Positions 10,858 to 62,786 of a stretch of 62,786 nucleotides of DNA are shown here, piece after piece; positions within the stretch are counted from its first letter, which is position 1, and the number at the start of each line of letters is the position of its first letter. This DNA comes from a virus (lineage: Duplodnaviria > Caudoviricetes). A model generated the notes under the pieces. That model had not been told where the DNA came from. It did not search any database and worked only from the letters and a program-made list of their open reading frames with translations. The DNA is taken from positions 1 through 62,786 of the IMG/VR virus record IMGVR_UViG_3300025168_000083; one strand, written 5' to 3'. Position numbers and translations under genes: made by a program.

Positions 10858-10920
10858 CTCAGCGGTCAGAGCAGGCGGCTCATAATCGCTTAGTCCCCGG
10901 TTCGAATCCGGGCTGGCCTA
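10848..10920 (+). tRNA. tRNA with CAT anticodon, most likely tRNA-Ile2 (lysidine); Met not excluded
   Basis: AGGCCAG/CTGGCCT acceptor stem, GGCGG-CTCATAA-TCGCT anticodon arm, GGTTCGAATCC T-loop; no encoded CCA. Confidence 0.9.
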
Positions 10921-10921
10921 T

Positions 10922-10994
<73 letters not shown>

Positions 10995-10998
10995 CGTT

Positions 10999-11071
10999 GG
11001 CTCCGTAGCCCAACGGCAGAGGCAGTGGACTTAAAATCCATACAGTGTGGGTTCGAATCCCACCGGAGCTA
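10999..11071 (+). tRNA. tRNA-Leu(TAA) with a short variable loop
   Basis: GGCTCCG/CGGAGCT acceptor stem; GTGGA-CTTAAAA-TCCAT anticodon arm. Confidence 0.9.
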
Positions 11072-45365: not shown

Positions 45366-48300
45366 ATGAGCGAACGACGTTGGTCAGTAGCACCGATCCC
45401 ATTAACTACTAGTAGTATCTTTGAAGAAAAACTTCAGAGAGACCAAATGAAACTAGTTAATGAACAAATGGCAGAAATACCATTTGCAAAGAACATGCCT
45501 GCTTATGGAACAGCTATAGACGCACCTATGGTCTTTCAAGACATGGACACAGGAGAGTATGTTAAGGGAATGCTGGAGTATGGAGAAGCTTCTAGGCAAC
45601 AGCTAAAAGGTGACTACGCTAGAGGATTTCTTGCTACAGATGCAGGATTCCGCCAACAGTTTTCTACTCAGGTTGTCGGAGGTAGAGATCTTTCTCTATA
45701 CAATGTTGATTCAGAAAAACTAGATTTATTAGAAATACCGAGTCATGTATCCGAGCAACTGCTTTCGGGGATGAAGGGGCCGCAATATAACTTAGCACTG
45801 TGGGACTATAGACATGCTCATGATGTTCCTATTATAGATTTGTTTGCAAGCGGACCTGAGGATTTTCTAAATATGGAGCCGCCTGAAGGGTGGTCAACCA
45901 AGGCTGCTATAAACGAATTCAAAGAACGAGATCCCAAACTATACGCTTTAATGGCTACAACTCTTGGGGGAGACGCTGGTATTGAAGAGATAACTAGAGA
46001 CTCTAGAAACCCAGTAGAGTTCTTTTATGATTTAAACAGACGACAGCAGCTATTAGCAATTACACAAAGTCAACAGATGTTTGAAGACAGAGCTGGATTT
46101 ATATCTAGTAATTATGAAGGATTAAAAAACTTTGTTGTAAATGGTATTTTAGATGACCCAGACATGGCAGCATCTTTTGCTTTGTCTGTTGGATTAGCAG
46201 CCTTTACAGGAGGTACTAGCCTTCTTGCTGGAGCCGCTTTTAAGATTGGCAAGGCGGCTAAGACAGCTCACAGATTTAATAAGGTACTAGGATCGGGACG
46301 AGCAGTTGGTAGAGGGTTAGCTATTAGTGCCAAGCACGCAAGAACTGCTCAAGTATTGTTACCAGAAAACCTTGGCCCAACATTAGTTAGGACCGTTCTG
46401 TTTAAAGAAAAGTACGCAAAGATGGGCGGGGTCGCTAAGTTTGGCGTGAATAGGTTATCTGATTCTGTTGAAGGTACAATAAGTGGAGCGTTAGCTGAAA
46501 CCTTTAATCAGAAAAGAAAAAAGGATTTAGGTCTTATAGATGAAATGAGCTATGCTGCTATTGCTAGCGAAGCTCTTACTGAAGCTGCCTTATCCCCGTT
46601 GATTAATCCTATCTTTGGTGGTGTCTTTAAGGGAATAGGTATGGTAGCTAGTGTACCCGGTACGATTATGAGTCAAGCCTTTGCAAACACACTAGGTAAA
46701 AGGGAACTAGGAAAGTACTTACAAGAGACTACACAGACAGCTCTTAGTATGTTTAATCCACAAGCAATGTTAGATTCTATGGATGTGTATGAAGGTAAGG
46801 AAACTTTAATAACTAATATTAATAGTTTATTAGGAGAAGAAGAATCCTTAAAGGATGGTCTAGAACTTGAAAGTACTTTAATTCCAATTCTTGAAACTGT
46901 CCGAGCTACTTCTGGATTGGATAGCCCTAAGTTTTTAGACGCTTTAAATGTAGCCGTAGAAAATATAATTACCGCTCGATCAGCATCACAAAGTGCTAAT
47001 AAAGAAATGACAGGAGCCGAACTAGGCGTTAGTATTATTACTCAACTAGCCACAGAAAATGCAGAGATGGCTACTACCCTTGGAGAAAAAGGGTTTGAAC
47101 ATATAATGGCTGTTATTTCAAATCAACTTACTATGATTACGAATGCTAAGAAAGAAGGATTATCTGTAGAAGAGTATTTTTCTAGGGTAGTAGAAGACGG
47201 AACATATTTTGATTTGCTTCCAGAAGTTCTTAAGCAGGAGGTCTATAAGAAGGCGGGTGGCGAAGAAGCCGCTAAGAAGTTAGGGGATACTAAACTTAGA
47301 GAAATCGCAGCAGAAGTTCAATTAGATATTATTAAAGAGTCTAAAAAAATTCACACTGAGTTTAAGAAGAGGGTTGAATCAACCACAAAAGAAGTAAACG
47401 AAGTTAATGAAAGTGTACAGAATATAAGCGAAGCAACGGGAATACCAATTCCACCTAGAGTTGATCCTTCCCCAGAACCTACAGTAACACCTCGACCAAG
47501 AAGTAACGAGGGTGCTACTGATACGGCTCCAGCAGAGGAACAGAGTAGTGATGAGGCCCAAGCACCTGTGGACGATCTTACAGAACAACACCGCAAAGAA
47601 ACAGATCTGACAGAGACACAGAAAGAACTGATCAACATTAAAGAAGAATTAATGAAGAGGCGTAGAGATGCCCGTAATGCAGAAACTGTAGATAGAAAAG
47701 AACTTAAAGAGATTGACAAGAATATTAAATCTGTAGATGCGTTACTTACTAGAATTGAGACTCTTAGAAAAGAAGTTACAAATAGTATTAACGCCTACTT
47801 AACTGAATCAGGTCAAAGTAAAGAACTCATTGAGCTTGGTAGAACACTTAGAAAGTTAACTGAACAAATAGACAGAGCAATGGAAAAACTTAAGCCAATG
47901 CAAAATGAGATTAATCAGAACCTTGAAGACCGTAGTACACTTTCTGCAATCTTTACTTACTTCGGACCCGACTCGGCTGAAAAATATCCAGATGGTGTGT
48001 TCTTTGAAAACTTAAGTCCTGAACTACAAGAAACCTTACAGAGAATACATGACTCATTAAAATCTGGAACTGCAAAGACATATTTGGCTGAAGTCATAGC
48101 TGGTAAAAAACTTTCTGTAAAAGAAATTAAATCAAGAATTGTTAAAACTTTACAGAGAAAAACAGAACAGTTAAAAGAAAAGTGGGAAAACGATGCGTTG
48201 GTTGATCATATTCGAGACGAGGAAAAGAAACTAGAAGAACTTCGTGGTAAGTATAATGTAGAAAACGCTAAGTACCAACAGGAAAACATCAAGAAAGATC

Positions 48301-51300
48301 TGATTCAAATGACTCAGGTGATAAGTATTGCAGAGGTTGCAAAGCGTAAGAAGGATGAGATTCGTTCTTTGGAAACCCGACGACGATCTATTGACGAACT
48401 AATGGCAGATAAAGACACTGTTTCAATTCAAGAGGTGTATGTACGTTTACCTAGAAAGTCTAAGCTTAGGGGTGAATTAAAGGCAAGATTAAAAGACACA
48501 GACGGTGACGGCACAATAACTGTGGATGAGTTAAATGAAAGACTAGACGAAGACTTTGCGGACAGTAGGAAAAATATAGTCTCGACTATAGGAACCGATA
48601 CAAGATATTCTCCTATGTCTAGAACGAGACAAACTAAACGAATTTCCGCAATGTATGGTAACAGGTATGCTCATGAGATTTCTGATGAGGAAATCTATGA
48701 TGTTGATTTTGATATAGATTGGCTCGTAGAAAACAACACCCCCGGAACCGCTCTACGAGATGTGAAAATTAGTGTAGAAGAAGATCACAAGTCTTTCAAG
48801 CAATGGTTAGCTAACTTGTCTGTAGTTGGGCAAACGTCTAGCAATGTTGCAAACGACGGTACAATTTCTACGTGGAGACTTCTTTCTAACATGCCAGATT
48901 ACTTCTGGGATTTAGGCCTACCTATTCATATTATATTTAGAAAAGCAATGGTAAACCCAACAGAGAACGCAGGGTCTGAAACCAATAGTACTGGAAGTGA
49001 AGAAAACCCTTGGGATAGCGTATCTAACTTAAGCAGCGTTAGGTGGAGATATTCTGAAATTAAAAGCATACTTGAACGATGGGAAGTAATTTCTAAGGCT
49101 AGGCTAACTGGATATATGGAGTCGTTTGGAAAAGAACTTGCCAAGGAAATGGCTAAGGATCTATTGAGCGAAAGCAACCCATCTGGCTTAACCAATCTTG
49201 AAGCAACCGCAGAATATTTAAATGAGGCTATAGTTGCAGAGCGTAACTTTAACACAGAAAAATTTAATGAGTCGGGTTATATCTTAAGTATAGATAGGGC
49301 TACTGGATTCCCTACAGAATTTGCATCCAAGGATCAAGGCTACTTATACGAGGCAGGAGTTAGGAACGCCATTCGCACAAGAGTAGGATACATGATGAAC
49401 AATGCTAAGTTTAGACTGTTCATTAAAGAGAAGGCTGGCATTGAAATCTTTTTAACTAAGCCCGGAGAAACTGCCGAAGAAGCACAGGCTAGATCAGTAA
49501 AAGAAATTGATACTATAACTGACTATATTATTAATAACCTTAGTCTGGTTTTAAATGAAGTAGACGCTACTCATCCACAGTTTATAAACTTTACTCTAAC
49601 TGGGTTTGGGGATGGCTCAATCTCTTGGTCGCCCGCTCAAATGGCAGGATATGCTATTGTTGATACATTTGTTGAAAAGAGTGTACCAATGAAATCAAGG
49701 CTAACAGGAATTCAAGAAGCTACAGAATACGCTAACACAGAAGAGATGAGAATAACCGGCGAGTCTGTAATGTTAGAGATGCCTAGAGAAGGCGATATAA
49801 ACTTCGCTGCTCCTATTTCTCTTGCAGACAATCGTTTAAACGTAGAGAATTATAAGTTTAGGTTACGTATTAAAGAAGTACTTAAGAAAGCAAAATCAGA
49901 AGTACCTTTAACTCCTAAGGAAAAGAAGGTTCTATATAACTCAATACAGAGTAGAAGATTCAAAGACGAAACTGATCCCGTTGCTGATGAAATGGATATG
50001 TATTTAGTACCTCAAATTGTTGGTGGACACGCCCAAGAAGAGTTTATAACAAGAGATCAAGCTAAAGACTTTATGATGGAGCTGTTCTTGGACATGGCTC
50101 AAATAGGCCACGCAATAAATCAAGACTCCATGACAATAGCCAATGGTGGAAGCCTTAGATTTAGAAACACAAAAGAAAACCCAATGCCTCTTGCTTTCGC
50201 AAACCTAAACTTAGGGTATGATAATATTACCCCACTTGGTTCTCAGTTAGCTGAAACCTTGGCATTAGAACAAATGCATCCTGATTTAAGCGGAATGAGT
50301 GAAGCCGCAGCAACAATGCACATTAAGTTTGTTAGTGAGTTTAAGTCAAAGTGGCAAGCCGCTAATCCCGATAAGGAATGGTCGGCAAGTGTTATGTTAG
50401 ATCCTAGTAACCACACTGATCAAGTAGCTAGTGGTCTTATGATTGTCCAACTCCTTTCTAAACTAGGATCTGGAGAAGCAGCTGTAGAATTGGATAAGAT
50501 AAGGTTAATGATAGACGATATTGACTTTGAATTATTGAATGAGGACGGCACGGCACAACGAAATTCTGACGGGACATTCGTAAGTCTTGCTCTGGAGGAC
50601 GTATATGTAGAGACTGGATTAAATATCCTTGGGCATATCAAAGATAAAGATAAGGATAACAAGTACATACAAGGCTCGGGCAAGTGGTTAACAGATGTCT
50701 TTGGATGGTTAGACCAAAACGAAATAACAAATAAAGATAATTATAGAGAGAAGATGGCAGAGTTTGAAGCAAGCGGAGACACCGAAAGTGTCCGTAAGGG
50801 AAAAGCAATTAGAGAGTTCTTTAAAGTTCCTGTTATGCGTCGTCTTTATGGTGGTGGTTTAGATTCATTTAAACTAGAGTTTATGGGAATGACTGCTAAT
50901 AGTCGAGAGATTATAGACGAGTTAAATGGTGCGTTTGGAATAAAACTTACAGACGCTGAAACAGAAAATCTAGGCACAGTGCTTCTCTCTGCTTCTGCAA
51001 TGAATGGGGTTCATATCTTAGATGCTGCTTTAGGGTTTGAAGGTAAGATCCGAAATGCTGCTATGGCCTTCTTAAAAGTTGGTAGAGAGCAGCAGGTGGA
51101 AACCGAGATGTGGAGAGATGTTGTCCGGTCTTCTAATATCCCAAACCAAGACTCTGGAAATTCTCAAGGCCCGACTGAGTTGGCTCCTGTTGATGGCGAA
51201 TCTATGCATATCATGAATCGTCTTGACCGTGTTAAGAGAGCCCTTGAAGGTAAGATTAGATATTTAGCAGAAAGAACTCCAGAAGGTGCTACGCCTGAAA

Positions 51301-54300
51301 ACATTGCTAGAATAAAAAAGAAGTATGATAACAGATATGGAGAAGCACTAAGATACATAGAAGAACTAGAGTCTAAGGGTATAACCATAGAGGATAAGTC
51401 TCCACACTGGGAAAGGCTTCAGGAAATTTTACATGGCGGTGAAGTGGGTTCGTGGGCTCGTATAAGTTTATTCAGGGCTACTAATATTCTTAACGCTTCT
51501 ACATATAAACTTAATATGAAAAGAATGAAAGCTACAGCTGATATGTTTGGCTTTGAGGACTTTGAGCCCTCCGATTGGATGGGACTAGAAGACCACCTTC
51601 TTTACCACTTAAGCCTTCCTACCCAAAGATCTCCTAGATCCTTCCATAAGGGTAAGCACGATCCCCACGGTATTTTTGCTAATAGAGTAGCTATTCAACC
51701 AGAACAACTTAATGAGTTTATGGCTATAGCAGAACAGAATGCAATAGACGATCATGGAGAATTTAACCAAGCAGACTTTGATGAAGCTCTCGCCTCTTTC
51801 TTAACGAACGAAGAGCCAGATGCTTTCGGTATGTTTGATATAGAAGACAATGTATATAAAGGAATGTCAAGAGAAGAAGTAGATGCTGAGTTAGATCGGT
51901 TGATGGATATGGATCAACTTATGTATATGGCTAGTGTAGACAGGCTCCCATCAGAAATATTCCCTGACTTTGTTTCGGATGAGAGTGATGTAGTCGTAAT
52001 GGACACAATGTTAAGAGAACACTACGAGCATAACAAAAGAAGATTTGAAACTCCTTCGGGAGAAAAGGATAGAACTCTTGCAACAGAAATAGCAAGAGAA
52101 GAACGGCTTCTTGATTTAGGAGACTCTGGACTAACGATCTTAAAGTACCGAGCTAAGATTGCTGGGGGTGTACGTAGCCCTAGAGTGGCACGAGTATTAG
52201 GAAAGCCACTCATTCCATATCACAGACGAGAGCTTTCTATGCAAGAAGCTATTGGTACAAGAGATAACCAAGACTTGTATATGTCTACAGTGGAACCTCA
52301 AGGATTACTGAGTATGACTCCTAGATATAGGAGAAGTTCTTTCTTTAGTAGAGGCATTCCTGTATTGCAAAGATCCGCAGTTCAAAGAAAGATTAACGAA
52401 GTGCTTGAGCCAGTCTTAGCTATAGATCCTAAGATACAAGATCCTAAGATGAAGGGTGTTAGTGTATTTGACACCCCTACTGGTAAGGGATTATTAGGAT
52501 GGCATCAACCCTACCAGAGGTCTAGTCTTCCCAAGGCTATGCCCTTAAAGATAGATGAGATGATTGACTTAGGTATGGATGATGAAGCAGGCCGAAAGGC
52601 CGCAAGAATTCTTAATGGAATGCGGCAATGGGCTTCTTATAGAGATGATGTTGGAGATGATTTAGATAACCCAGATGGTCTCCTTTATTGGTATGTGGTT
52701 AGAGAGATTGAAAGATCACGAGCAGAAATGCTAGAAAACTTACCTGACTACTCTCGATTCTCAAAGAATGAACAAGAGAAAAAGGCACACGCTAGAAAAT
52801 ATAGAATGCAGTGGTTAGAAGGATTGCACGCTATTACACATTTCTCAAGAGATATCAAGGGTGCAGAAAGTAAGGGAATGACCTTAGCAGACAAGGCAAG
52901 AACGTTAGCTGTTCAAGCAGCAGACGATTTTGATTCTCCTGAAAGCAAGCAACGGTGGATAGATGTTCTAACAACTACAATCACCGAAGACAACCCTCAC
53001 GGTACTTTCTTATCCGCTCCAACTAAGCTACAAAAATCTCTAGAGTTTATTATTCCTAGAGAAAACGTTGTTCTTATGGATAGAATTAAAAGCGTGCTTG
53101 AAGATCCTACTGCTACGTTATCAACCAATGATTTGCAGATGTTAGCACAAATGATTCAGTCTACTGACTTCCCATATCATCTATTAACTATTATGTACAA
53201 GAACGAGGTATTACCTAATGTTCTTAAAGAGTTTACGGTAACCGACGAAAACGGAGTAACCTCTAAGCCCTATGCTGATTTAGAGTATGATGTCATAGGA
53301 GAAGACGGTTCGCCTACCGGAGAAAAAGCTAAGGTATGGGCTAACCCTAACATGTGGGAAAACTACATACAGGCAGAACACGTTCATTCAATCATTGCAA
53401 ACGCTAAGGTATGGATTGAAGAGAATGGTGCAGATCAAATTATATTTGATACTTTAATTGAAGAACAACTAAGTTCCAATGAAGCACAGGCAAAACAAGG
53501 GATAAAGGATTTTGCTGTATACTTAGAGAACACCAACCCCGATATTGTGGGGGACGCTAGACCAGCACAAATGAGAAGCAGCTTCTTCCCAGAACAAGTT
53601 CTTACGCCAACAGGATTAGTAGGAAAGGGACAGTTAGCACTGTCTCCTGCTAAGGCAATGGAGTTGTTTGGGTTATTAGAATCTTTCTCTTTATTAGAAA
53701 AAATTAAAAGAAGTAACTGGTCTGGACAAGCTATTGGCTTTGTTAAAGATCCAGTAACAGGTAAGATTACAGAATCAAAGCCTACATCAAGAAGAATCAA
53801 AGATGGCCTTGGGCATAATGAAAACGATATACGGAAGGCAGAGGTTCTTAGAAGCAGTGCTCTTGAAAGGGTTGTCGGTCTTGGCGGGAAAGCAGATGTA
53901 TTAAGGGCAACAGATACTACTCGGTCTGTTGAAAGCACAGGTCAGATTGAAGCTATTGATCTTGACTCTTATCGAAGAGCCCAACACAGAGACGATCTTT
54001 CAGCTGCTTGGATGGAGTCTTATATTAGTCCAGTATCTAAACAACTTGGATACATGAAGTCTACAAACATTGATGAAGTATTTGGGCCTAGTCTTAGAGA
54101 AGAATTAGAGTTAATAATTGACAGAGCACGGACTGAAAACACCCTTGCTAAGAAGGGCGAAGGAGGGCTATACTCTAATACTGTTATGTGGTTAGCTATT
54201 ATGTTAGAACTCCCCCCTCATGATGTTGATACGCTAAACCCAAGAGGACACCTGTACGATACCTTTATCGGAGGAAGATTCTCAGAAGAAACAAATGCAA

Positions 54301-57300
54301 AGGCTTTTGCTACTGCTCAAAAATTAATGAGACAGATTAAGCAAATCGGTTCTGTAGATGGATTCTACTACGGACTAGAACGACAAGCTCCACTGATTTC
54401 TACTATTAGAGAGTGGGCATCTAACGATGACTTTGCTGAAGCAACAACAAGAGATATTGATATTGAAAATAAATCAGCAGTATCAAACTTCCTTAACTGG
54501 CTTCAGAGTAATAAGACAACAAAAGAACTGGAGTTCTTAGGTTTTGCAGAAGACGAAAACGGAAATCTTGTATATAAAAAGAAGTCCAAAGATCCTGAGT
54601 TAGACCCTCTTAAAGAGTTAGAGTTTATTATTAACTTTGGTTTAGGGCAAGAACGTTTGATGGTTGAGCAAGACGAGTCTCTTATGTTGTTTGGTGATCA
54701 AGAATCTAAGCTCAATACCACAGGCAAAGACTTAATTAAACTAGTTTCTAAACAAGGTAAGTTTGATGACGCTGTTAGAGATACGCAGGATCCTCATTTA
54801 ATAAGGGTCAATAATGAATTGAACAACATGAAAGACTCAATGACACCAGCAAACTTCCAAAGATTTAGAGCTTTAATTGCTAGGATGTATATGATTAATC
54901 CTCTTAACTTAATGGACTTAAGTTTAGATTATCAGAATACTAGAGGACGTAGTTTTGTTACTAGAGATAAAGAAGGAAACTTTGTTATCCGCATGGGAGG
55001 AATGCTTGCGAAGCCAATGAGTGATCCAAACATTGCTCTTATTTTCGCTCATGAATTAAGTCACGTGGGAAGAATGAGATGGATTGAAAATAACCAAGGA
55101 ACTTGGAGACATTGGGTTGATCTTTATCACTCTAAGGCCGGACGTAGCCTTCTCCGTAAGATTGTAACTGCATGGCATGGCGGGAACTATACAGCTCAAG
55201 CAAAACAAGAATTCGAAAGTTACATGGAAAACCCAGAAGAATTCATTGCTGCTTTAACTTCTTATTATTTAATGAATGACTCTCTCCCTGAAATGAATCT
55301 TGATTACAATGAAGGGAAAATCTCTGGAATAGCAGGGGGCATTGTTGGGAAGATTATGGACTTTGTTAGAAGAATCTTTATGAGAACTTCCTCAGTTCTT
55401 ACTAACTTCCATTACCAAGATCCCCGTCTGTCTCAACATGTGGAAAACCTTGTTCAAAAAACTTTAGGTTGGGATCCTATGGCAAAGAAATCCTTTACTG
55501 AAGTTCAGAACAAGGGAACAGAAAGAGAAATGTTCTTCTGGGATAAAAGATTTGAAGACACAACTCCAGAGCTAGAAAACGATCCAACGCAGTTTAAGCA
55601 GATGGTAATAGAACATAATAAACTTCTTAACTTAGGAGAAGAGGGAAGAACTCCAGAAGAGGCTAATAGATTCTGGGTTTTAGACTCTGCTATAAACGAC
55701 AGTACTGACGCTACTCATGTTATGACTTCTGGTATAACAAGATACGATCATCTTGTCGCGCATCAGCAAAACATGGCAATGTTTGGAGGGATTAATGGTA
55801 CTCTGGATATTGGTAAAATGTTAAACTCTATGGATAATATGGAGGGAGATGCGGTTAGTATTATTCAATATTCCTCAGCTTTAGAGTATTGTATGGAAGC
55901 TTGTAATAGGGAATTTGGAGATCAGTTCCAAGACGGAGTAGGACTCACAGCAGCCAAGGTTACAAAAGCATTATCAAAGGTTTTACCCAGTCTCAGTACT
56001 AGTAAACACAGGGGTGAGGGAGCCTACTCACATATGATGGTAGATCTAACAGTAGGTAAAGCAGGAGCTAACTATACTTGGAATGGGCCACATCCTTTTG
56101 TTATTTTATTGACTCAATTAATTAATGATGATATTGCTACAAGTACAGGACAGTATACAAACGTAAAGGGAACGCCTTCTGTAGTTAGAGTGATTAATGA
56201 TATCGCCTTGTATAAAGATTCAGTAACAAGTTCAATGGCGGCGATAGGTACAACTTTACAGCCATTCTTTACTAGAGCTTTAGGTCAACAAGTGTCTACA
56301 GAAAAACAAAGAGAAATTATGTCTGCTGTATATGAACAGGTTGCTATTAAATCAGACAACCCCAGCCATGAAGTAACACTTCCAGAATTACAAGAATCCG
56401 CAATGAGTGAAGAGGATTTAAAAATAATACATACTGAAATAACGAATACTGCCGATAATATTAGATTGTTTATGGAAGACTATCGCCAAGCAGGAACTGA
56501 ACTTGGGTTGTTTAAATCTACATCATTCAGAACACATATACCGTTTAAATTAAACAGGCTTATACTAGAAAGTGAACCAAGAGATGGTTTTGTTGAGAGC
56601 ATGAGTAAAATGATCCGCGATAAAATTATTAGTGAGTCTGAAGGAAAATTAGATCCTCTTGTTATGTTTGCTGCAAACTTAATTCCTAGATTTAACACTA
56701 CTCAAAACTTAGTTGATGATTTAAAGAAACTAAAAAGAATTAGTCCAGAAATGTATGGCTATATTTTACATAAGGCTGCTGAAGCCCACTATACACAAAA
56801 CGGCCAAATGGATGAATCTTTTGATACTATTCGAGGAATGAGACAGATCGTCTTTACTGATCTAGATAGTTCGGCAGATCCACAAAGACAGGCTAACGCT
56901 GTAGAATTATTTAGGTTAGGTATTATTTCAGCTATGAATGAAATGTCCCAAGGTAGAACTACTGCCGGTTCTTTACAAGAGTTTGGGGTTAACTGGAACA
57001 ACCTTAAGGATATTTATATTACAGCAATTGATCAAAGAATAGACGGAGAGCGTTTCAATACACTCGATAGTCCCGCACTTGATTCTTTAATACCCGATCA
57101 TATTTACTACTCACCTAAACACGGGCAAAGAAAAAGACAGGTGTTTGAAAATATAGATACTCCTGTAATGGTTCATATGCATAATCTAATAAACCGTGCC
57201 TCAGACGGTATGTACTTTCCTTACGATATGTGGTCCTTCCCTTCAGTTGTAGAAGCATTCCAAGACCCAGCTATACGTCCCCACCTTAACTTAGACCCAG

Positions 57301-59354
57301 ACCAAATGATGGGCGATATGATGAAGGGTAAGGGAGATCAGTTATTTGAAACCCAAATGATGGTAGACCACTTCGGAGTCTTTGGTAATGTTAAAGATCT
57401 TATTAATCTATTTGAAATTGTAGGAACCAGAGGTCATGGGTTTAGAAACTTAGACGGAACATCAGTATCTCTAGGTGTTCAAAAGGAAATGATAGATGCT
57501 GCATCTCAGTTAAGAGGAAAACATGCAGTTACAAGAGGTATAAATTATGTAGCAGATTCTCCTTCCGCATTCGAATCTATGCTAACAAACGCAGCACCCG
57601 GACTTACTAGAACAGTCTTTGGCGGCAACCTCGCACTTGCTACGTTTACTGTTGAGACGCTTGCCAGTACAATGATTGAACTGGTTGGAAGGGGCAACTT
57701 TATGGGATCCGTAAGAAGTTTACTGTCTCCTATATTAGGACTTAATCCAGAATTGCAAAAGAGAGTAGGAAGAGATTTAGTACATACAGTAGAAGCACTT
57801 AGTAAGGGCTTCATACCAGATCATGAAATGCCTGCGAATGCGGACACAGAACAGATGCTCGCAAAAATATTTAACTTTACGGGCCGACAGGCAATGAGAC
57901 CTGCACAGTATATGTTAAAGAGCCTAGCTATTCAAAGAGCTATATCAGCTCGAAACTTTGTTGTAGATAATTTAAAACATAACATGACAAAGGATGATAG
58001 CGGAAGACCTATTAGTAGGTTACATCGTTTGGCTCAGTTGATCCATCAAGAACCTTTAGGAAAGGATCCAAAGGCTATACTAGATCGAATGCGTAGAGCA
58101 GGGTTCTCAGTGTTTATGGACGGGGATATTCAATTAATTACATCCTTATTAACAGCCGGGCTCTTAGATATTGAGAGCGGATCCTTTGGTATTTTGGCTA
58201 GTATGGTAGAAGAAAATACTGAAGTTGAAGCCTACTACAGCCCCGGAGAAATGTTAGCCTCTCTTGCTAGAAGCGACATACGGCCCTCCAGTACAGAGGG
58301 TGGTAGGGGAGTCTATCAAGCAAGGAAAGAAGTTATTGCTGGTCTGAGAATGGTCGAGAAGCAATACATTGAACAGGTTCTGGTAGCCCCCAATGCCTTT
58401 GATGTCTTTACTCCTAAGGTATCCTCTACTGGAGAAGCAGAAGGAACGGGAGCATTAGATACCTTGTTTGAAATCTTTAGGCGATATCCTATGTTGTTTG
58501 TGAGTCAGCACGTTTACAGAAAGATGAACCGACAAAGCCCAATGAAATATGCTTTCGGTCTTACTAGTATGTTGATGTTAGATGTTGTATACATGCTGGC
58601 ACTTAGATTGTCAATGGGAGCAGAGCCAGAAGATATCCTCGAAGAGTTTGAGGATAATCCGGTAGGCTTCAGTATTGGCTACGGTGTCCGTCTTCCAATC
58701 CTTGGTCGATACATGGGCTTGATTGGTGAGGCTATTGCTGCCCTGCCTATGCTTGCTCAGGGTAAGTCCATTAGGCAGCCCGGCGGATTCATTCCTCTGG
58801 GAGCGTTGGAAGCAGCAGCCAAGGGAGTCCTTAGAGCGGGAGATTCAGTGTGGAATAACGAGCCACATAAGTTACAGGATGTCCTGAATGCAATGAGGGT
58901 AGTTCCTATTGCAGGAGATAGGTTACTTGCCTTAGGATACTACACTGCCGCAGGAGACGGTATACAGAGGCGTAGTAATAAGAGCAGCGGTACAGGCACA
59001 TCAAGAAACGCTGAGACTGGAGAACTTCAAACAAGGCATCACTATGGGGTTCCAGAACAAGCCTTTGAAATAAACGAGGCAATGAACCACAGAGTATTGT
59101 TAGAACAGTTTGGAGCACAGATGGAATGGCCGGGATACTCAGAGCCAAAGGATGTTCCGTTTGCAGGAATGACTAGGCAGCAGTATCCTGAGGACATGGC
59201 AGAGGCAGCTCCGACCGCCCCCGCCCCTACCCCTGCGCCGCCTTCAGAACCCGCGCCAGCCCCGGCTCCTGCCCCTCAGGCAGAGCCTACGATGGCAGAC
59301 CGTATAAGAGGACAGGAGGGGTCTTCTGGTAAACTCGCAGACGCACTAGGGTAA
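45366..59354 (+). CDS. Giant internal virion protein, putative virion-packaged RNA polymerase with a zincin domain, 4662 aa
   Basis: TDQVASGL (motif A, D1685), EDVY, REFFKVPVMRRLYGG (motif B R-x3-K-x7-YG), possible motif C HD2099, HELSH...EEFIA. Confidence 0.7.
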   Translation: MSERRWSVAPIPLTTSSIFEEKLQRDQMKLVNEQMAEIPFAKNMPAYGTAIDAPMVFQDMDTGEYVKGMLEYGEASRQQLKGDYARGFLATDAGFRQQFSTQVVGGRDLSLYNVDSEKLDLLEIPSHVSEQLLSGMKGPQYNLALWDYRHAHDVPIIDLFASGPEDFLNMEPPEGWSTKAAINEFKERDPKLYALMATTLGGDAGIEEITRDSRNPVEFFYDLNRRQQLLAITQSQQMFEDRAGFISSNYEGLKNFVVNGILDDPDMAASFALSVGLAAFTGGTSLLAGAAFKIGKAAKTAHRFNKVLGSGRAVGRGLAISAKHARTAQVLLPENLGPTLVRTVLFKEKYAKMGGVAKFGVNRLSDSVEGTISGALAETFNQKRKKDLGLIDEMSYAAIASEALTEAALSPLINPIFGGVFKGIGMVASVPGTIMSQAFANTLGKRELGKYLQETTQTALSMFNPQAMLDSMDVYEGKETLITNINSLLGEEESLKDGLELESTLIPILETVRATSGLDSPKFLDALNVAVENIITARSASQSANKEMTGAELGVSIITQLATENAEMATTLGEKGFEHIMAVISNQLTMITNAKKEGLSVEEYFSRVVEDGTYFDLLPEVLKQEVYKKAGGEEAAKKLGDTKLREIAAEVQLDIIKESKKIHTEFKKRVESTTKEVNEVNESVQNISEATGIPIPPRVDPSPEPTVTPRPRSNEGATDTAPAEEQSSDEAQAPVDDLTEQHRKETDLTETQKELINIKEELMKRRRDARNAETVDRKELKEIDKNIKSVDALLTRIETLRKEVTNSINAYLTESGQSKELIELGRTLRKLTEQIDRAMEKLKPMQNEINQNLEDRSTLSAIFTYFGPDSAEKYPDGVFFENLSPELQETLQRIHDSLKSGTAKTYLAEVIAGKKLSVKEIKSRIVKTLQRKTEQLKEKWENDALVDHIRDEEKKLEELRGKYNVENAKYQQENIKKDLIQMTQVISIAEVAKRKKDEIRSLETRRRSIDELMADKDTVSIQEVYVRLPRKSKLRGELKARLKDTDGDGTITVDELNERLDEDFADSRKNIVSTIGTDTRYSPMSRTRQTKRISAMYGNRYAHEISDEEIYDVDFDIDWLVENNTPGTALRDVKISVEEDHKSFKQWLANLSVVGQTSSNVANDGTISTWRLLSNMPDYFWDLGLPIHIIFRKAMVNPTENAGSETNSTGSEENPWDSVSNLSSVRWRYSEIKSILERWEVISKARLTGYMESFGKELAKEMAKDLLSESNPSGLTNLEATAEYLNEAIVAERNFNTEKFNESGYILSIDRATGFPTEFASKDQGYLYEAGVRNAIRTRVGYMMNNAKFRLFIKEKAGIEIFLTKPGETAEEAQARSVKEIDTITDYIINNLSLVLNEVDATHPQFINFTLTGFGDGSISWSPAQMAGYAIVDTFVEKSVPMKSRLTGIQEATEYANTEEMRITGESVMLEMPREGDINFAAPISLADNRLNVENYKFRLRIKEVLKKAKSEVPLTPKEKKVLYNSIQSRRFKDETDPVADEMDMYLVPQIVGGHAQEEFITRDQAKDFMMELFLDMAQIGHAINQDSMTIANGGSLRFRNTKENPMPLAFANLNLGYDNITPLGSQLAETLALEQMHPDLSGMSEAAATMHIKFVSEFKSKWQAANPDKEWSASVMLDPSNHTDQVASGLMIVQLLSKLGSGEAAVELDKIRLMIDDIDFELLNEDGTAQRNSDGTFVSLALEDVYVETGLNILGHIKDKDKDNKYIQGSGKWLTDVFGWLDQNEITNKDNYREKMAEFEASGDTESVRKGKAIREFFKVPVMRRLYGGGLDSFKLEFMGMTANSREIIDELNGAFGIKLTDAETENLGTVLLSASAMNGVHILDAALGFEGKIRNAAMAFLKVGREQQVETEMWRDVVRSSNIPNQDSGNSQGPTELAPVDGESMHIMNRLDRVKRALEGKIRYLAERTPEGATPENIARIKKKYDNRYGEALRYIEELESKGITIEDKSPHWERLQEILHGGEVGSWARISLFRATNILNASTYKLNMKRMKATADMFGFEDFEPSDWMGLEDHLLYHLSLPTQRSPRSFHKGKHDPHGIFANRVAIQPEQLNEFMAIAEQNAIDDHGEFNQADFDEALASFLTNEEPDAFGMFDIEDNVYKGMSREEVDAELDRLMDMDQLMYMASVDRLPSEIFPDFVSDESDVVVMDTMLREHYEHNKRRFETPSGEKDRTLATEIAREERLLDLGDSGLTILKYRAKIAGGVRSPRVARVLGKPLIPYHRRELSMQEAIGTRDNQDLYMSTVEPQGLLSMTPRYRRSSFFSRGIPVLQRSAVQRKINEVLEPVLAIDPKIQDPKMKGVSVFDTPTGKGLLGWHQPYQRSSLPKAMPLKIDEMIDLGMDDEAGRKAARILNGMRQWASYRDDVGDDLDNPDGLLYWYVVREIERSRAEMLENLPDYSRFSKNEQEKKAHARKYRMQWLEGLHAITHFSRDIKGAESKGMTLADKARTLAVQAADDFDSPESKQRWIDVLTTTITEDNPHGTFLSAPTKLQKSLEFIIPRENVVLMDRIKSVLEDPTATLSTNDLQMLAQMIQSTDFPYHLLTIMYKNEVLPNVLKEFTVTDENGVTSKPYADLEYDVIGEDGSPTGEKAKVWANPNMWENYIQAEHVHSIIANAKVWIEENGADQIIFDTLIEEQLSSNEAQAKQGIKDFAVYLENTNPDIVGDARPAQMRSSFFPEQVLTPTGLVGKGQLALSPAKAMELFGLLESFSLLEKIKRSNWSGQAIGFVKDPVTGKITESKPTSRRIKDGLGHNENDIRKAEVLRSSALERVVGLGGKADVLRATDTTRSVESTGQIEAIDLDSYRRAQHRDDLSAAWMESYISPVSKQLGYMKSTNIDEVFGPSLREELELIIDRARTENTLAKKGEGGLYSNTVMWLAIMLELPPHDVDTLNPRGHLYDTFIGGRFSEETNAKAFATAQKLMRQIKQIGSVDGFYYGLERQAPLISTIREWASNDDFAEATTRDIDIENKSAVSNFLNWLQSNKTTKELEFLGFAEDENGNLVYKKKSKDPELDPLKELEFIINFGLGQERLMVEQDESLMLFGDQESKLNTTGKDLIKLVSKQGKFDDAVRDTQDPHLIRVNNELNNMKDSMTPANFQRFRALIARMYMINPLNLMDLSLDYQNTRGRSFVTRDKEGNFVIRMGGMLAKPMSDPNIALIFAHELSHVGRMRWIENNQGTWRHWVDLYHSKAGRSLLRKIVTAWHGGNYTAQAKQEFESYMENPEEFIAALTSYYLMNDSLPEMNLDYNEGKISGIAGGIVGKIMDFVRRIFMRTSSVLTNFHYQDPRLSQHVENLVQKTLGWDPMAKKSFTEVQNKGTEREMFFWDKRFEDTTPELENDPTQFKQMVIEHNKLLNLGEEGRTPEEANRFWVLDSAINDSTDATHVMTSGITRYDHLVAHQQNMAMFGGINGTLDIGKMLNSMDNMEGDAVSIIQYSSALEYCMEACNREFGDQFQDGVGLTAAKVTKALSKVLPSLSTSKHRGEGAYSHMMVDLTVGKAGANYTWNGPHPFVILLTQLINDDIATSTGQYTNVKGTPSVVRVINDIALYKDSVTSSMAAIGTTLQPFFTRALGQQVSTEKQREIMSAVYEQVAIKSDNPSHEVTLPELQESAMSEEDLKIIHTEITNTADNIRLFMEDYRQAGTELGLFKSTSFRTHIPFKLNRLILESEPRDGFVESMSKMIRDKIISESEGKLDPLVMFAANLIPRFNTTQNLVDDLKKLKRISPEMYGYILHKAAEAHYTQNGQMDESFDTIRGMRQIVFTDLDSSADPQRQANAVELFRLGIISAMNEMSQGRTTAGSLQEFGVNWNNLKDIYITAIDQRIDGERFNTLDSPALDSLIPDHIYYSPKHGQRKRQVFENIDTPVMVHMHNLINRASDGMYFPYDMWSFPSVVEAFQDPAIRPHLNLDPDQMMGDMMKGKGDQLFETQMMVDHFGVFGNVKDLINLFEIVGTRGHGFRNLDGTSVSLGVQKEMIDAASQLRGKHAVTRGINYVADSPSAFESMLTNAAPGLTRTVFGGNLALATFTVETLASTMIELVGRGNFMGSVRSLLSPILGLNPELQKRVGRDLVHTVEALSKGFIPDHEMPANADTEQMLAKIFNFTGRQAMRPAQYMLKSLAIQRAISARNFVVDNLKHNMTKDDSGRPISRLHRLAQLIHQEPLGKDPKAILDRMRRAGFSVFMDGDIQLITSLLTAGLLDIESGSFGILASMVEENTEVEAYYSPGEMLASLARSDIRPSSTEGGRGVYQARKEVIAGLRMVEKQYIEQVLVAPNAFDVFTPKVSSTGEAEGTGALDTLFEIFRRYPMLFVSQHVYRKMNRQSPMKYAFGLTSMLMLDVVYMLALRLSMGAEPEDILEEFEDNPVGFSIGYGVRLPILGRYMGLIGEAIAALPMLAQGKSIRQPGGFIPLGALEAAAKGVLRAGDSVWNNEPHKLQDVLNAMRVVPIAGDRLLALGYYTAAGDGIQRRSNKSSGTGTSRNAETGELQTRHHYGVPEQAFEINEAMNHRVLLEQFGAQMEWPGYSEPKDVPFAGMTRQQYPEDMAEAAPTAPAPTPAPPSEPAPAPAPAPQAEPTMADRIRGQEGSSGKLADALG

Positions 59355-59447
59355 ATCGACTAGGGGGTCACGAATTTGTCTGGGGTAGTATATGGATGGG
59401 TGTCCATCCTTGTCCCCCCGTACCCCCCTTGACAAAGGAACTAACAC

Positions 59448-59780
59448 ATGTCACTCAACTCACGAAACACATCGATCCGCAATATCACTCATTATATCGT
59501 TGCATATAATAAGTCTGGAGGCAACCTTAAGGAAGTTCTCCATTGTGGAGTAGATGATAGTAATGATGCAAGACGTAAGGCACACAGGTTCATGGAATTG
59601 GCGAAAGCCGAAGGCATGGCTGAAGTGGCTTATTACTTTGTACTTACTAATGGCGAGGAAGGTAGGAATCATGATGTTCATAGTGTCTGGGTAGTAAACA
59701 AATGGCAACGTGACGAGAGTAAAGAATCATTCTTTACTAACGAATTCGCTAGCCATCCTGTTAACTACGTAGACGCATAG
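59448..59780 (+). CDS. Hypothetical early protein, 110 aa
   Basis: AAGGA RBS; first ORF after the structural block. Confidence 0.7.
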   Translation: MSLNSRNTSIRNITHYIVAYNKSGGNLKEVLHCGVDDSNDARRKAHRFMELAKAEGMAEVAYYFVLTNGEEGRNHDVHSVWVVNKWQRDESKESFFTNEFASHPVNYVDA

Positions 59781-59855
59781 CCGAAAGGAAGTACTGTTGT
59801 AGCAACCAGTACTTCCTCTGTCGTGAATGGTCTCACGGCACTGACGAGGCAGACC
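59780..59855 (+). ncRNA. Type II hammerhead ribozyme with pseudoknot
   Basis: GCC-GAAA-stem III(10 bp)-UC-stem I(8 bp)-CUGACGA-GGC; loop GGUC can pair with 3' GACC. Confidence 0.92.
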
Positions 59856-59873
59856 CTCATAAGGAGCTAAACA

Positions 59874-60206
59874 ATGTTTAGCCATGCCCTTAACTGGGCT
59901 TACCGGGCTGGTCGCACTATCAAGTGGACCAGCATTACCCTCTTCTTGCTCATCGGTTGCATCTTCGGACTCATAGGAGTCTGGATGCTGGTTGGTGATA
60001 TGTCATCCCCATTTGCGTGGATGACCACCATGTCCGGCTTCATGTGCTTCTACATGTTGCTGGTGCTGGCCTCAGAGTACCTAACAGACTACTCTGATGA
60101 CTATGCAGATGAGCCCTTGGTCAAGCTTGGACAAGGTGACCACGAGTGGATTGTTCCTCCTCCGCCAACAGGCGAAGGCTCAGACGATCACCCTGACGTT
60201 TGGTGA
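59874..60206 (+). CDS. Membrane protein with two TM helices, 110 aa
   Basis: AAGGAG RBS; two hydrophobic segments and an acidic C-tail. Confidence 0.75.
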   Translation: MFSHALNWAYRAGRTIKWTSITLFLLIGCIFGLIGVWMLVGDMSSPFAWMTTMSGFMCFYMLLVLASEYLTDYSDDYADEPLVKLGQGDHEWIVPPPPTGEGSDDHPDVW

Positions 60207-60231
60207 TGATTGATGCTTCGATGATTTGATT

Positions 60232-60270
60232 AGTCACCCATCTCTTAACGGAGGTGGGTGGCTTTGTATT
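60232..60270 (+). terminator. Stem-loop terminator candidate
   Basis: AGTCACCCATCTC-TTAACG-GAGGTGGGTGGCT followed by TTGTATT. Confidence 0.6.
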
Positions 60271-60296
60271 GAGAGCCTACCGGTAGGCTCTATAAC
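60269..60296 (+). promoter_or_regulatory. Sigma70-like promoter overlapped by a perfect 20-bp palindrome
   Basis: TTGAGA-16 nt-TATAAC; AGAGCCTACCGGTAGGCTCT at 60272-60291. Confidence 0.55.
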
Positions 60297-60355
60297 TATT
60301 TGTTCCTAGCACGTTGCTAGGATTCGTTTTATGAAATCCTTTAGGAGAATCTTAA

Positions 60356-62164
60356 GTGATTAAGAAAAAGGATAAGCGTATTGAAATCGAGGACGCAGCG
60401 AAGATTGCTGTCTCAAAGTTCTTTAAGGACAAGGGACGGCTTCGTCGCTGGCTCGAAGAAGGTTACGACCTTTGCAAGGTGTTGGACCATACTCGCATGC
60501 CTGTACTCAATCAGGTTTCGGAGATGGTTCCCGCTACGCACTTCGACATTCTCGACTCACATGATGTCAACACAGTGGAACGCACAGTCACCAAGGTGGC
60601 TGCTGTGTACGAGGGACGCATTGAATTGCGTACCGAGTACCTGCACTCCTCTCCACCCAAACTCGAAGGAGATTATGCACCCATGATCTCTCGACAGGAT
60701 GACTGGGAGGTTCCCGCAGATGCTCTGGAGTTCATGCAGAACTCTACCAATGTTCCACTGCGTCTCTCTATGCCAGACTTCGAGCTTGCCTTGAAGTACA
60801 GGGAGACACTGCCGGGTTACGATCCGGTGACAGAACGCAATGAGCAGGAGATCTTCCTGCCAGAGCGTGCCATTGCTGAGTTCGTGAGAGTCGGTGACAC
60901 GGTGTTCTACATCGTTGTCAACAAGGCAGACCGCCGGATTCGTGTCTACGCTTTTGCGCGTGGTACAATGCACCCGGCTAACTGTAAGACATGTCGTAAC
61001 ATGACTCGAACTGCTGAGTACTTCCCCGTCGATGATGCCGAGCTAGGTATCTGGTATGAGGAACTTCAGCAGGGATACGGTCTCGATTACAAGTTGATGG
61101 AACATATCATCCAACCGGAGAACGGTCTCGCGTTCCTTATGGAACATGGGCATAAGCAAGGGTTTCCACAGGTTACGGAAGCTCGGGCTTTCCTTGAAGC
61201 GAGGGATACAGGTATGAGTAATTACCTGTGCTACATCGATGCTTATGCTTCCGGCCCCACGATCATTGATTGTTCGATGGGTATGCCGGGAGCCGCTGAG
61301 CGAGCCGATGCTAGTAGGCCGGATTTCAAGCATCACTATCGTAGGTATGCTGAACATCTGTGGTCTAACCCTAAGTTTAAGGGTGCTGTTGGTGGCGTAC
61401 CTAACGGTATGACACTGGAGCAATACCTGCAACTGCTTCGCAATGAGATCAAGCCCGCTCCTGTCAGTGGTGTCTATGGTGCTGGTGGCTCATCCATGAG
61501 CCTCAGTGTCTTGGGTCACCCTACTGACAACGAAGATGAGACCTCACTTGAGGATGTTCGACTTCAGTTGCCTCAGGCTTTCCAGAACTGGAAGCCTGTG
61601 CAAGCTGAGAAGTGGGTCAGCGAATTCGTTGACACCTTCAAGCAGCCTCTTGCAATGGCTCTGAAGAAGGCATTCCCCGGTGTTGCTCGTCTTCACTCTG
61701 GTCTTCAGTCTCACTGGACCCGGAGTGTGGGTAAGGATAACAGAGGTACACCTCCTACTATCCTATCTCCAGATGGACACTACGTGTATCAATCCTCGAT
61801 CCTCCGCAGGAACAAGGATGTCCACTACGGACTCAAGTACAAGTGTCCCATCACGGATGAGCATACAACAGTGCAGCGTATGCCCCTTGAACTCAATCGT
61901 GGTATTGAGCTGGGAGCCAATGGTACGCACATGTTAGATGCTTTGATTCTTCGGCTCGCTGCCAACAGGAATGCTGAACAAGGTATTCCTACGGTGACGA
62001 TCCATGACTCAGAAGGTGTTCCACGTTTCTTCAGGAGACAGGCTAACAGAAACTATGTCTGGGCGTTCAACTACGTCCTGTCATTGCCCTTCTGGCAGCA
62101 GTTCGGTATCCACTGTGGACCGTTCCAGTCTCTTGATCGCAATGCCGTCCTCCTCGGACGGTGA
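60356..62164 (+). CDS. Second, divergent single-subunit RNA polymerase-like protein (RNAP-2), 602 aa
   Basis: DRRIRVY, YIDAYASG (motif A), RNEIKPAPVSGVYG (motif B), ANGTHMLDA, VTIHDSEG (motif C), in T7 order. Confidence 0.85.
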   Translation: MIKKKDKRIEIEDAAKIAVSKFFKDKGRLRRWLEEGYDLCKVLDHTRMPVLNQVSEMVPATHFDILDSHDVNTVERTVTKVAAVYEGRIELRTEYLHSSPPKLEGDYAPMISRQDDWEVPADALEFMQNSTNVPLRLSMPDFELALKYRETLPGYDPVTERNEQEIFLPERAIAEFVRVGDTVFYIVVNKADRRIRVYAFARGTMHPANCKTCRNMTRTAEYFPVDDAELGIWYEELQQGYGLDYKLMEHIIQPENGLAFLMEHGHKQGFPQVTEARAFLEARDTGMSNYLCYIDAYASGPTIIDCSMGMPGAAERADASRPDFKHHYRRYAEHLWSNPKFKGAVGGVPNGMTLEQYLQLLRNEIKPAPVSGVYGAGGSSMSLSVLGHPTDNEDETSLEDVRLQLPQAFQNWKPVQAEKWVSEFVDTFKQPLAMALKKAFPGVARLHSGLQSHWTRSVGKDNRGTPPTILSPDGHYVYQSSILRRNKDVHYGLKYKCPITDEHTTVQRMPLELNRGIELGANGTHMLDALILRLAANRNAEQGIPTVTIHDSEGVPRFFRRQANRNYVWAFNYVLSLPFWQQFGIHCGPFQSLDRNAVLLGR

Positions 62165-62173
62165 CCCCTAACC

Positions 62174-62252
62174 GAGGTGGCAGGAGGTAAAAGCCTGCCA
62201 CCTCTTCCCGAGAGTCAAGTGACTCTCACACACAGGGAATGTGTTATTCCCT
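62174..62252 (+). promoter_or_regulatory. Three tandem hairpins between RNAP-2 and the next gene
   Basis: GAGGTGGCAGG/CCTGCCACCTC; GAGAGTCA/TGACTCTC; AGGGAAT/ATTCCCT. Confidence 0.55.
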
Positions 62253-62275
62253 CATATTTTTTCGGAGGCCATACC

Positions 62276-62786
62276 ATGGCTAAGCGAATCGTGAAAACCC
62301 AAGGATTCGGACGCGTGTCTGAATGGGAACGTACACTCCGCACAGGTTCTAAGAACGGGGTGTTGTACTTGATCTATGAGTTGTACTCTACGAGCAAGCA
62401 ACGCCGCAGTCTGAGGTTCTGGCCCTGTGACGATCCACAAGCCTTTGTCGACAGAGGCATCCGCTACTCAGCGAATGTCACAGAATCTGTCGTCAGGGAG
62501 CAGGTGGGGCAGTTTCAGGATGTGGTGGAGATCCCCTACGACTCCAACAATCCTCGCCACAAGGTTAACAACTGGGTTAACATGTGGACACCGAGGGACA
62601 ATGAGTTGGAGATCCGGGGTACGGAGCCAAGGGAACAGTTCAGTCTCATCGTTGAGCTAAATGTTCCGGCTTCGGGTGTGAAGTTCTCATACCAAGGCCC
62701 GTTTGTGGCTGACCAGAATCATGCCTTCGGGGCATTGACTCGTCAGTTCAACGCTCACTTCCAAGGGTGCAACATTGAATCGAGGG
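62276..62786 (+). CDS. 5' part of the ~197-aa hypothetical protein (continues at the window start)
   Basis: GGAGG RBS; MAKRIVKTQGFGRVSEW... stays open to the window end. Confidence 0.85.
   Translation, partial: MAKRIVKTQGFGRVSEWERTLRTGSKNGVLYLIYELYSTSKQRRSLRFWPCDDPQAFVDRGIRYSANVTESVVREQVGQFQDVVEIPYDSNNPRHKVNNWVNMWTPRDNELEIRGTEPREQFSLIVELNVPASGVKFSYQGPFVADQNHAFGALTRQFNAHFQGCNIESR
62508..62786. repeat. Terminal direct repeat / circular overlap, right copy
   Basis: Same 279 nt as the window start, with 3 substitutions. Confidence 0.97.

Follow-up and report, generated by a model that had tools for sequence, protein, structure and literature searches.

A predicted pseudoknotted type II hammerhead ribozyme between two genes of an uncultured marine T7-like phage

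Pseudoknotted type II hammerhead ribozymes were described in 2011 by Perreault et al., who published the class, its pseudoknot and a proposed role in the cutting of phage polycistronic messenger RNA (mRNA) (PMC3088659). Members of the class are reported there to cleave in vitro and in Escherichia coli and to flank prophage genes. The hammerheads of phages have been proposed to cut long transcripts into gene-length mRNAs (PMC3088659, PMC6765202), and three type II copies of Desulfovibrio vulgaris are described as cleaving in vivo (PMC8782182). A 2019 review called the biological purpose of genomic phage hammerheads open (PMC6765202). The element reported here belongs to an uncultured marine phage, IMG/VR virus record IMGVR_UViG_3300025168_000083, the whole of which (62,786 nucleotides, nt) was analysed and is called the window below. 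It occupies positions 59779-59858 of the + strand, between two co-oriented phage open reading frames (ORFs) and on their strand. Judged by its sequence, it is a genuine, complete, pseudoknotted type II hammerhead and a typical member of the known class. The reading preferred here, with a probability of roughly 0.8, is that it is a functional ribozyme which is transcribed within a polycistronic mRNA and separates the two cistrons.

Anatomy, family match and covariation

A search with the Rfam type II hammerhead model, which the earlier note on this DNA had put forward as a check, gave a full-length match of 43.1 bits to Hammerhead_II (RF02276), whose gathering score is 37. For a search of the whole window with 4227 families, the expectation value (E) of the match is 1.7e-5. 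This is the sole ribozyme match in the window, even with permissive filters, and RF02276 matches none of 14 control genomes. The score is modest because the pair 15.2-16.2 is G-C and not C-G (cleavage triplet CUC) and because stem III is long. The required core is complete, comprising CUGACGA, GAAA, the A15.1-U16.1 pair and a non-G H17 at the cleavage site, and it is flanked by standard pairs (G59848-C59782 at 10.1-11.1, U59819-A59840 at 1.1-2.1 and A59786-U59817 at 15.1-16.1). The type II topology is satisfied, with loops closing stems I and III and with stem II opening to the flanking RNA. The strands of stem III are GGAAGUACUG (59787-96) and CAGUACUUCC (59807-16); this stem is extendable in ViennaRNA by UUG/CAA with a bulged C to about 13 base pairs (bp). 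The strands of stem I are UGUCGUGA (59819-26) and UCACGGCA (59833-40). G59780, at the 5' end of stem II, doubles as the final base of the TAG stop codon of the upstream ORF. In ViennaRNA, stems III and I are both part of the minimum-free-energy fold, which has -31.7 kcal/mol (z = -3.4 against shuffles). The coordinates of the features are collected in Table 1.

Table 1. Features of the ribozyme and its surroundings in the window (aa, amino acids)
Feature	Position	Strand	Basis or remark
Whole type II hammerhead ribozyme (predicted)	59779..59858	+	Rfam RF02276 match, model 1-66 of 66
Stem II, 5' strand GCC (positions 11.3-11.1)	59780..59782	+	pairs with 59848-50
Core G12 A13 A14 plus A15.1 (GAAA)	59783..59786	+	read from sequence
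Stem III hairpin, 10 bp, 59787-96 with 59807-16, loop 59797-59806	59787..59816	+	
U16.1 and C17, triplet CUC; predicted scissile bond C59818/U59819	59817..59818	+	
Stem I hairpin, 8 bp, 59819-26 with 59833-40, loop AUGGUC 59827-32	59819..59840	+	
Core C3 U4 G5 A6 N7(C) G8 A9 (CUGACGA)	59841..59847	+	
Stem II, 3' strand GGC	59848..59850	+	pairs with 59780-82
3' tail GACC, pseudoknot partner of loop I GGUC 59829-32	59852..59855	+	
Upstream ORF, 110 aa, variable cassette	59448..59780	+	
Shine-Dalgarno-like AAGGAG, 5 nt past the pseudoknot strand, 7 nt before ATG 59874	59861..59866	+	
Downstream ORF, 110 aa, two hydrophobic stretches	59874..60206	+	
Terminator-like hairpins 60232-60263 and 60304-60322, after the downstream ORF	60232..60322	+	consensus scan
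Conserved non-coding block of about 75 nt that immediately follows the giant gene and borders the variable cassette on its upstream side	59355..59429	+	alignment

Eleven copies from the phage group were aligned with MAFFT, namely those of the window, the loci L002 and L004, and the relatives G001, G002 (three copies), G006 (two copies), G016 and G012. The structure scored was written from the window and comprises stem II, the two outer pairs of stem III, stem I and the pseudoknot, 17 pairs in all; the deeper pairs of stem III were excluded because MAFFT misaligns them. Out of 185 cells, 98.9% pair, against a shuffled mean of 86.5% and 27-44% with slid partners. Changes on both sides occur in 10 of the 17 pairs, a figure that 0 of 500 shuffles reached. 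They affect six of the eight pairs of stem I and two of the four pairs of the pseudoknot, and the middle pair of stem II also covaries (CG in nine copies, UA in two). The pseudoknot is fixed in eight of the 11 aligned rows; pair G29-C55 is A-U in G016 and U-A in G006b, and pair U31-A53 is C-G in G012, these three copies having been retrieved by Rfam and not by the pattern of loop, core and tail. The pair 15.2-16.2, which is G-C in the window and C-G in most relatives, represents a compensatory flip. The unpaired core is unchanged across the 11 copies while the helices covary.

The earlier note had described a complete pseudoknotted type II hammerhead at this place, and that description is upheld by the score above the Rfam cut-off, the intact core and the covariation of stems I, II and III and of the pseudoknot. 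Every coordinate it had assigned to an element of the ribozyme is borne out by direct reading of the sequence.

Distribution, position and genome setting

Three metagenome loci (L002, L003 and L004) were retrieved via the 602-aa protein encoded downstream of the junction, independently of the ribozyme; this protein has few relatives. All three carry Hammerhead_II at the same junction (59.4, 53.4 and 50.1 bits), with core, loop I and 3' tail identical to those of the window. The sequence of stem III is lineage-specific, stem I varies by paired substitutions, and the cleavage triplet in L002 is GUU. The downstream ORF is kept in all three loci (52-61% identity by tblastn). The protein of the upstream ORF differs between the window, L002/L003, L004 and G001, and the upstream ORF of the window has no tblastn match in any related locus. 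On the far side of this variable ORF, the non-coding block at 59355-59429 is common to the window, L002 (about 40-130), L004 (1-60) and G001 (about 2690-2830 of locus L124); it is kept even in G001, whose proteins diverge far. The block contains a small hairpin, GGAUGG-GUGU-CCAUCC, with a paired substitution in L004, and its fold as a whole is no more stable than that of shuffled sequences (z = -0.34). A function as promoter, terminator or packaging signal is possible. In run X5, a single contig diverges from the window at 59429 and returns at 59813, within stem III, after 215 nt of different sequence; this joint calls for caution because the likeness setting of 80 lets joints come from other organisms.

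Several small early proteins, some of them similar at the C-terminal end alone, appear by eye to share a motif there of roughly the form LVKLGQGD(H/Y)E or HGQGEY. It is present in the downstream 110-aa ORF of the window (60150-60206), its L004 homologue (440-724), a 168-aa ORF of G011 (locus L210, 839-1345) and a 76-aa ORF of G002 (locus L125, 2072-2302, - strand), the last being otherwise dissimilar by eye. None of ten ribozyme-adjacent ORFs in relatives has a named PHROG function. In the collection of deposited phages, no match was found to 59300-60400 by blastn or to the 602-aa protein by tblastn, and the 3' half of the ribozyme gave by blastn only matches with E = 3 inside coding genes of Gordonia phages, which are taken as chance. 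Scans of IMG/VR for close relatives, with single proteins or a protein alignment, found none.

In the wider phage group, the relatives G001, G006 and G002 have T7-like RNA polymerases that are 61%, 52% and 49% identical to that of the window, and they share a layout of giant gene, small ORFs, hammerhead or hammerheads and a second polymerase-like gene, which by its position is a possible counterpart of the 602-aa ORF. They form a biased sample, since they were found via the ribozyme pattern. The second polymerase-like frame of G002 is 34% identical to residues 381-813 of the 814-aa polymerase of the window. G002 has three ribozyme copies and G006 has two, all of them immediately downstream of a stop codon; in 10 of the 11 phage-group copies the upstream stop lies between 4 nt before and 1 nt after the base at which the Rfam match begins. 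The Hammerhead_II scores of the relatives range from 39 to 59.4 bits. The ribozymes of G016 and G012 are likewise close behind the giant gene, at a distance of no more than about 0.5 kb.

The subtype at large was collected from IMG/VR with a pattern of loop I, core and tail, which retrieved at least 119 stretches; together with the window and L002-L004 there are 127 matches. Among these matches listed, 106 parse as full type II hammerheads, corresponding to 82 unique sequences, when a complementary middle base of stem II is sought within 100 nt upstream; the parse itself demanded at least 4 pairs in stem I and at least 3 in stem III. The remaining 21 of the 127 listed do not parse, some being cut by the end of the locus and some being variants or chance matches. 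U16.1 and H17 are present in all 82 listed unique relatives, with 3-6 pair types per tabulated stem position, and the GAAA core is unchanged in all 82. N7 is U in 57, C in 21 and A in 4 of these listed relatives, and the cleavage triplets among them are GUC (68), GUU (6), CUC (2), GUA (2), AUC (2), CUA (1) and AUA (1). A CUC or CCUC tail follows GACC in 13 of the 34 listed unique relatives with G at 10.2 and in none of the 48 others; the CCUC tail may be a post-cleavage refolding element, or it may be a lineage signature reflecting shared descent.

The position of the subtype relative to genes follows a rule, which was compared with random positions drawn from the same loci (L089 is mis-parsed in these counts). 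The stop codon of an upstream ORF of at least 40 codons falls within -18 to +4 of stem II in 68 of the 82 listed relatives, against 13.8% at random, and ends at 0 or -1 of stem II in 41 of the 82 listed, against 1.1%. A downstream ORF starts 10-26 nt past GACC in 52 of the 82 listed (18% at random), and an upstream stop in range is combined with any downstream ORF start within 60 nt in 63 of the 82 listed (8.2% at random). With a stop offset of 0 and 18 nt from GACC to the start codon, the window has the modal layout. The earlier note had placed the start of the element at the last base of the stop codon and its end just before the ribosome-binding site; the coordinates agree, and this arrangement is the modal one in viral contigs. 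Only 11 of 102 loci with a parsed ribozyme, among the matches listed, share any of 12 window proteins, so that the subtype is spread over many phage types; that it is confined to this T7-like phage group was considered and is rejected on the same count. In locus L015, two copies of the same subtype on the - strand (at about 3690-3760 and about 4590-4660) stand a few bases after a sequence resembling the 3' end of a transfer RNA (tRNA) (GGTTCGAACCC...), which suggests a possible role in tRNA 3' processing in that phage.

The ends of the window (1-279 and 62508-62786) repeat each other over 279 nt with 99% identity, and this terminal repeat sits within an ORF that spans the junction (62177 to 362). 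The assembly is therefore circular, with about 62.5 kb (IMG/VR class: linear). The long ORFs are all on the + strand, the same strand as the ribozyme, which fits sense transcription. T7-like genes are present for terminase, portal, capsid, primase/helicase, DNA polymerase and RNA polymerase, and the terminase is about 39% identical to those of Pelagibacter and Roseobacter podophages. The T7-like RNA polymerase of 814 aa is encoded at 6114-8558 (phrog_414, E 1.7e-154), about 8.8 kb downstream of the ribozyme on the circular map. A giant ORF of 4662 aa (45366-59354), to which neither Pfam nor PHROG assigns a family, accounts for about 22% of the genome; the ribozyme is located about 425 nt past the end of this ORF. 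Giant open frames of 4675-5694 aa occur in relatives, with 30-57% identity over the C-terminal 700 residues, and a gene of 4662 aa is unusual in a phage with otherwise T7-like core genes. Neither of the ORFs flanking the ribozyme has a PHROG family. Pfam returned TauE alone for them, for the downstream ORF and below its cut-off, and the upstream ORF yielded in the protein atlas only matches under 0.9. The 602-aa ORF (60356-62164) has weak RNA-polymerase PHROG matches (E about 1e-5) and no BLASTP similarity to the 814-aa polymerase (E 3.6). Among direct repeats, no repeated phage-promoter-like family is apparent. The G+C content is 0.49-0.51 across 58501-62786 and 1-1500, against about 0.35-0.47 elsewhere, and the presumed early module thus has a base composition of its own. 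Three adjacent tRNA genes (70.9, 66.3 and 62.7 bits) are located at 10848-11071, just before the primase/helicase gene.

Proposed cleavage and its alternatives

Transcription, cleavage and the fate of the products are inferred as follows. As the RNA emerges, stems III and I would fold, and the 3-bp stem II together with the 4-bp pseudoknot of loop I and the 3' tail would dock stems I and II. The RNA would then cleave itself between C59818 and U59819. The upstream mRNA, carrying the variable 110-aa ORF, would have the stem III hairpin and a 2',3'-cyclic phosphate at its 3' end. The downstream mRNA, coding for the conserved small hydrophobic protein, would begin at the base of the stem I hairpin, carry a 5'-OH there and have its Shine-Dalgarno sequence just beyond the ribozyme. 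With its stop codon 38 nt ahead of the cut, the upstream ORF would stay complete; the two products would be joined by stem II and the pseudoknot alone and should therefore separate readily. A 2',3'-cyclic phosphate and a 5'-OH are the established ends of hammerhead products, and such ends are expected to retard decay that depends on the 5' end or proceeds by 3' exonucleases. Overall, the two neighbouring cistrons would be uncoupled independently of host nucleases and would have their ends protected. The terminator-like hairpins after the downstream ORF are a possible 3' boundary of the downstream mRNA.

Self-processing of the mRNA with a structured 5'-OH leader had been proposed in the earlier note; it would follow from the anatomy, appears reasonable and is already a published hypothesis for the class. 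The wording 'early genes' and 'earliest transcript' used there draws on position, the genes in question coming directly behind the last late gene, with the polymerase gene about 8.8 kb further on around the circle. By analogy with T7 this would be an early region, and both terms are best taken as presumptive. The downstream ORF, called a membrane protein there, is a putative one, on the strength of the two hydrophobic stretches read by eye and the sub-threshold Pfam match to TauE.

Several observations weigh against a functional ribozyme in this place. A scan for sigma-70-like promoters on the + strand of 58800-62786 found none, and for this reason a transcript across the ribozyme, as well as its being the earliest one, can only be presumed. 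The one run labelled metatranscriptomic gave no match to this stretch, the runs that did match consisting of contigs. The score of 43.1 bits is just 6 bits above the gathering cut-off. The minimum-free-energy fold computed without pseudoknots favours a GAGG/CCUC hairpin (59846-49 with 59855-58), and if this hairpin forms, G8, A9 and stem II would be sequestered. The distribution is patchy. An unbiased sample was obtained by searching IMG/VR with an alignment of the polymerase, which gave 131 relatives; from the best 80 of 131, the 15 records of at least 53 kb were screened for the ribozyme. Hammerhead_II (E <= 0.01) is present in three of the 15 (G001, G016 and G012), the two closest of the 15 (90% and 93% polymerase identity) are without it, and the early regions of G011, G010 and G013 match no Rfam family at E <= 1. 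The phage group can thus do without the ribozyme, which is conserved in a narrow lineage and recurs at the junction, yet is an accessory element.

These same points raise the question whether the copy is decayed or non-catalytic and acts as a hairpin pair only, for instance by stabilising the RNA, by causing pausing or termination, or as a target of a host double-strand RNase. The modest score, the less common CUC triplet (two of the 82 listed relatives), the competing hairpin predicted by folding and the absence of the ribozyme from 12 of the 15 long relatives would all agree with it. It is nevertheless held to be very unlikely: the whole core is intact though the flanking ORF is unrelated among relatives, an invariant unpaired core together with covarying helices in 11 copies is expected of a catalytic fold and not of simple hairpins, and the G-C at 15.2-16.2 is a compensated flip. 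The NUH rule of hammerheads, moreover, allows any base at 16.2. That the resemblance is due to chance and has no biological meaning, a view for which only the modest bit score can be cited, is given practically no credence, being at odds with the E value of 1.7e-5 and the 0 of 14 matching control genomes and being contradicted by conservation at the same junction in relatives with compensatory changes. Cleavage might also be gated by translation. With the stop codon overlapping stem II, a terminating ribosome, given the size of its footprint, would mask stem II along with the GAAA core and the first part of stem III. Cutting would take place only between or after ribosome passages, so that what becomes of the downstream mRNA would be coupled to upstream translation. 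The stop codon at 0 or -1 of stem II in half of the listed relatives (41 of 82, against 1.1% at random), and likewise in the window, is what such gating would lead one to expect. The overlap is explained as well by the tight packing of phage genes and by a conserved A-G at the start of the motif that fits UAG, UAA or UGA, while 14 of the 82 listed have no ORF end nearby and others have it up to 13 nt away; gating is therefore regarded as quite improbable.

As a further alternative, the hammerhead may also border an exchangeable gene cassette, with its conserved 3' half (stem I, core and tail) and the block at 59355-59429 acting as homology arms by which related phages swap their first genes; RNA cleavage would then be a second function or the original one. 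The window, L002/L003, L004 and G001 have wholly different ORFs between the conserved blocks but keep the ribozyme and the flanks, the ORF of the window is without a tblastn match in related loci, and the X5 contig has 215 nt of different sequence in place of the stretch between 59429 and 59813. Early genes that evolve fast and are bounded by conserved regulatory elements would look the same without recombination, however, the X5 joint is found in one contig, at a likeness setting of 80, and possibly stems from other organisms, and the differences in stem III fit ordinary covariation, so that this reading is considered unlikely. It is distinctly doubtful whether the hammerhead is the fixed downstream border of a hypervariable first-gene slot that directly follows the giant virion gene in this group of marine T7-like phages and forms a natural plug-in expression site. 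If it were, each acquired gene would be freed as a hairpin-capped mRNA with the conserved genes behind it undisturbed, the 3' half of the ribozyme and the 75-nt block would be recombination arms for cassette exchange, and the abutment of stop codon and stem II would be a design feature and not compaction. The preferred reading remains that of a functional hammerhead separating two cistrons of one mRNA.

Comparison with known systems

The window element resembles the type II hammerheads presented in PMC3088659 in its core and its open-stem-II topology, in its short stem II (3 bp here, as few as 2 there), in a pseudoknot of at least 4 bp that joins loop I to the bases immediately 3' of stem II, in its position between phage or prophage genes, and in the role proposed for it in the cutting of transcripts. 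It departs from the usual members of the class in its G-C pair at 15.2-16.2 with triplet CUC (C-G with GUC in 68 of the 82 listed relatives) and in its long stem III of 10 bp, extendable to about 13. The genome also differs from those in the descriptions of PMC3088659 consulted here, in that it belongs to an uncultured T7-like marine phage, measures about 62.5 kb and contains a gene for 4662 aa. In Agrobacterium tumefaciens, tandem hammerheads flank ardA according to the same source (PMC3088659), and a tandem layout is also found in G002 and G006. The ardA copies and those of D. vulgaris (PMC8782182) are, as far as these two accounts go, type II hammerheads at junctions of small phage-type genes on one transcript, as the present one would be; unlike in those cases, the copy of the window is single and its flanking genes have no known family.

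This copy adds a well-supported natural type II hammerhead in an uncultured marine phage lineage and leaves the knowledge of the ribozyme class itself unchanged. The positional rule of the subtype is quantified as stop codon, ribozyme, a gap of commonly about 19 nt with a frequent Shine-Dalgarno-like run, and start codon; the abutment of the stop codon is perhaps already visible in the supplementary gene-context figures of PMC3088659. Close relatives with and without the ribozyme at the same junction provide a natural comparison for the benefit of cleavage.

Two systems outside the class offer functional parallels. Phage T7 has RNase III processing sites between its early genes. These are the nearest parallel in function from a related phage, with intercistronic cuts of a polycistronic mRNA upstream of the RNA polymerase gene and hairpin-ended mRNAs; the cut predicted here would differ in being self-catalysed and not the work of a host enzyme and in its 5'-OH and 2',3'-cyclic phosphate ends, and there is no family relationship. 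In synthetic insulators of the RiboJ type, a hammerhead just upstream of the ribosome-binding site removes the upstream RNA context. As in RiboJ, an extra hairpin stands between ribozyme and ribosome-binding site in G001, in two of the G002 copies (G002b and G002c) and in G012, whereas the window is without it. These extra hairpins are located at 3219-3252 of L124, on the - strand of L125 after G002b and G002c, and on the - strand of L214 after the G012 copy; one example reads GGUGCU-UA-AGCACC and is followed by AAGGA. Unlike RiboJ, the element of the window is natural and has the type II topology, so that its upstream product would gain a 3' hairpin.

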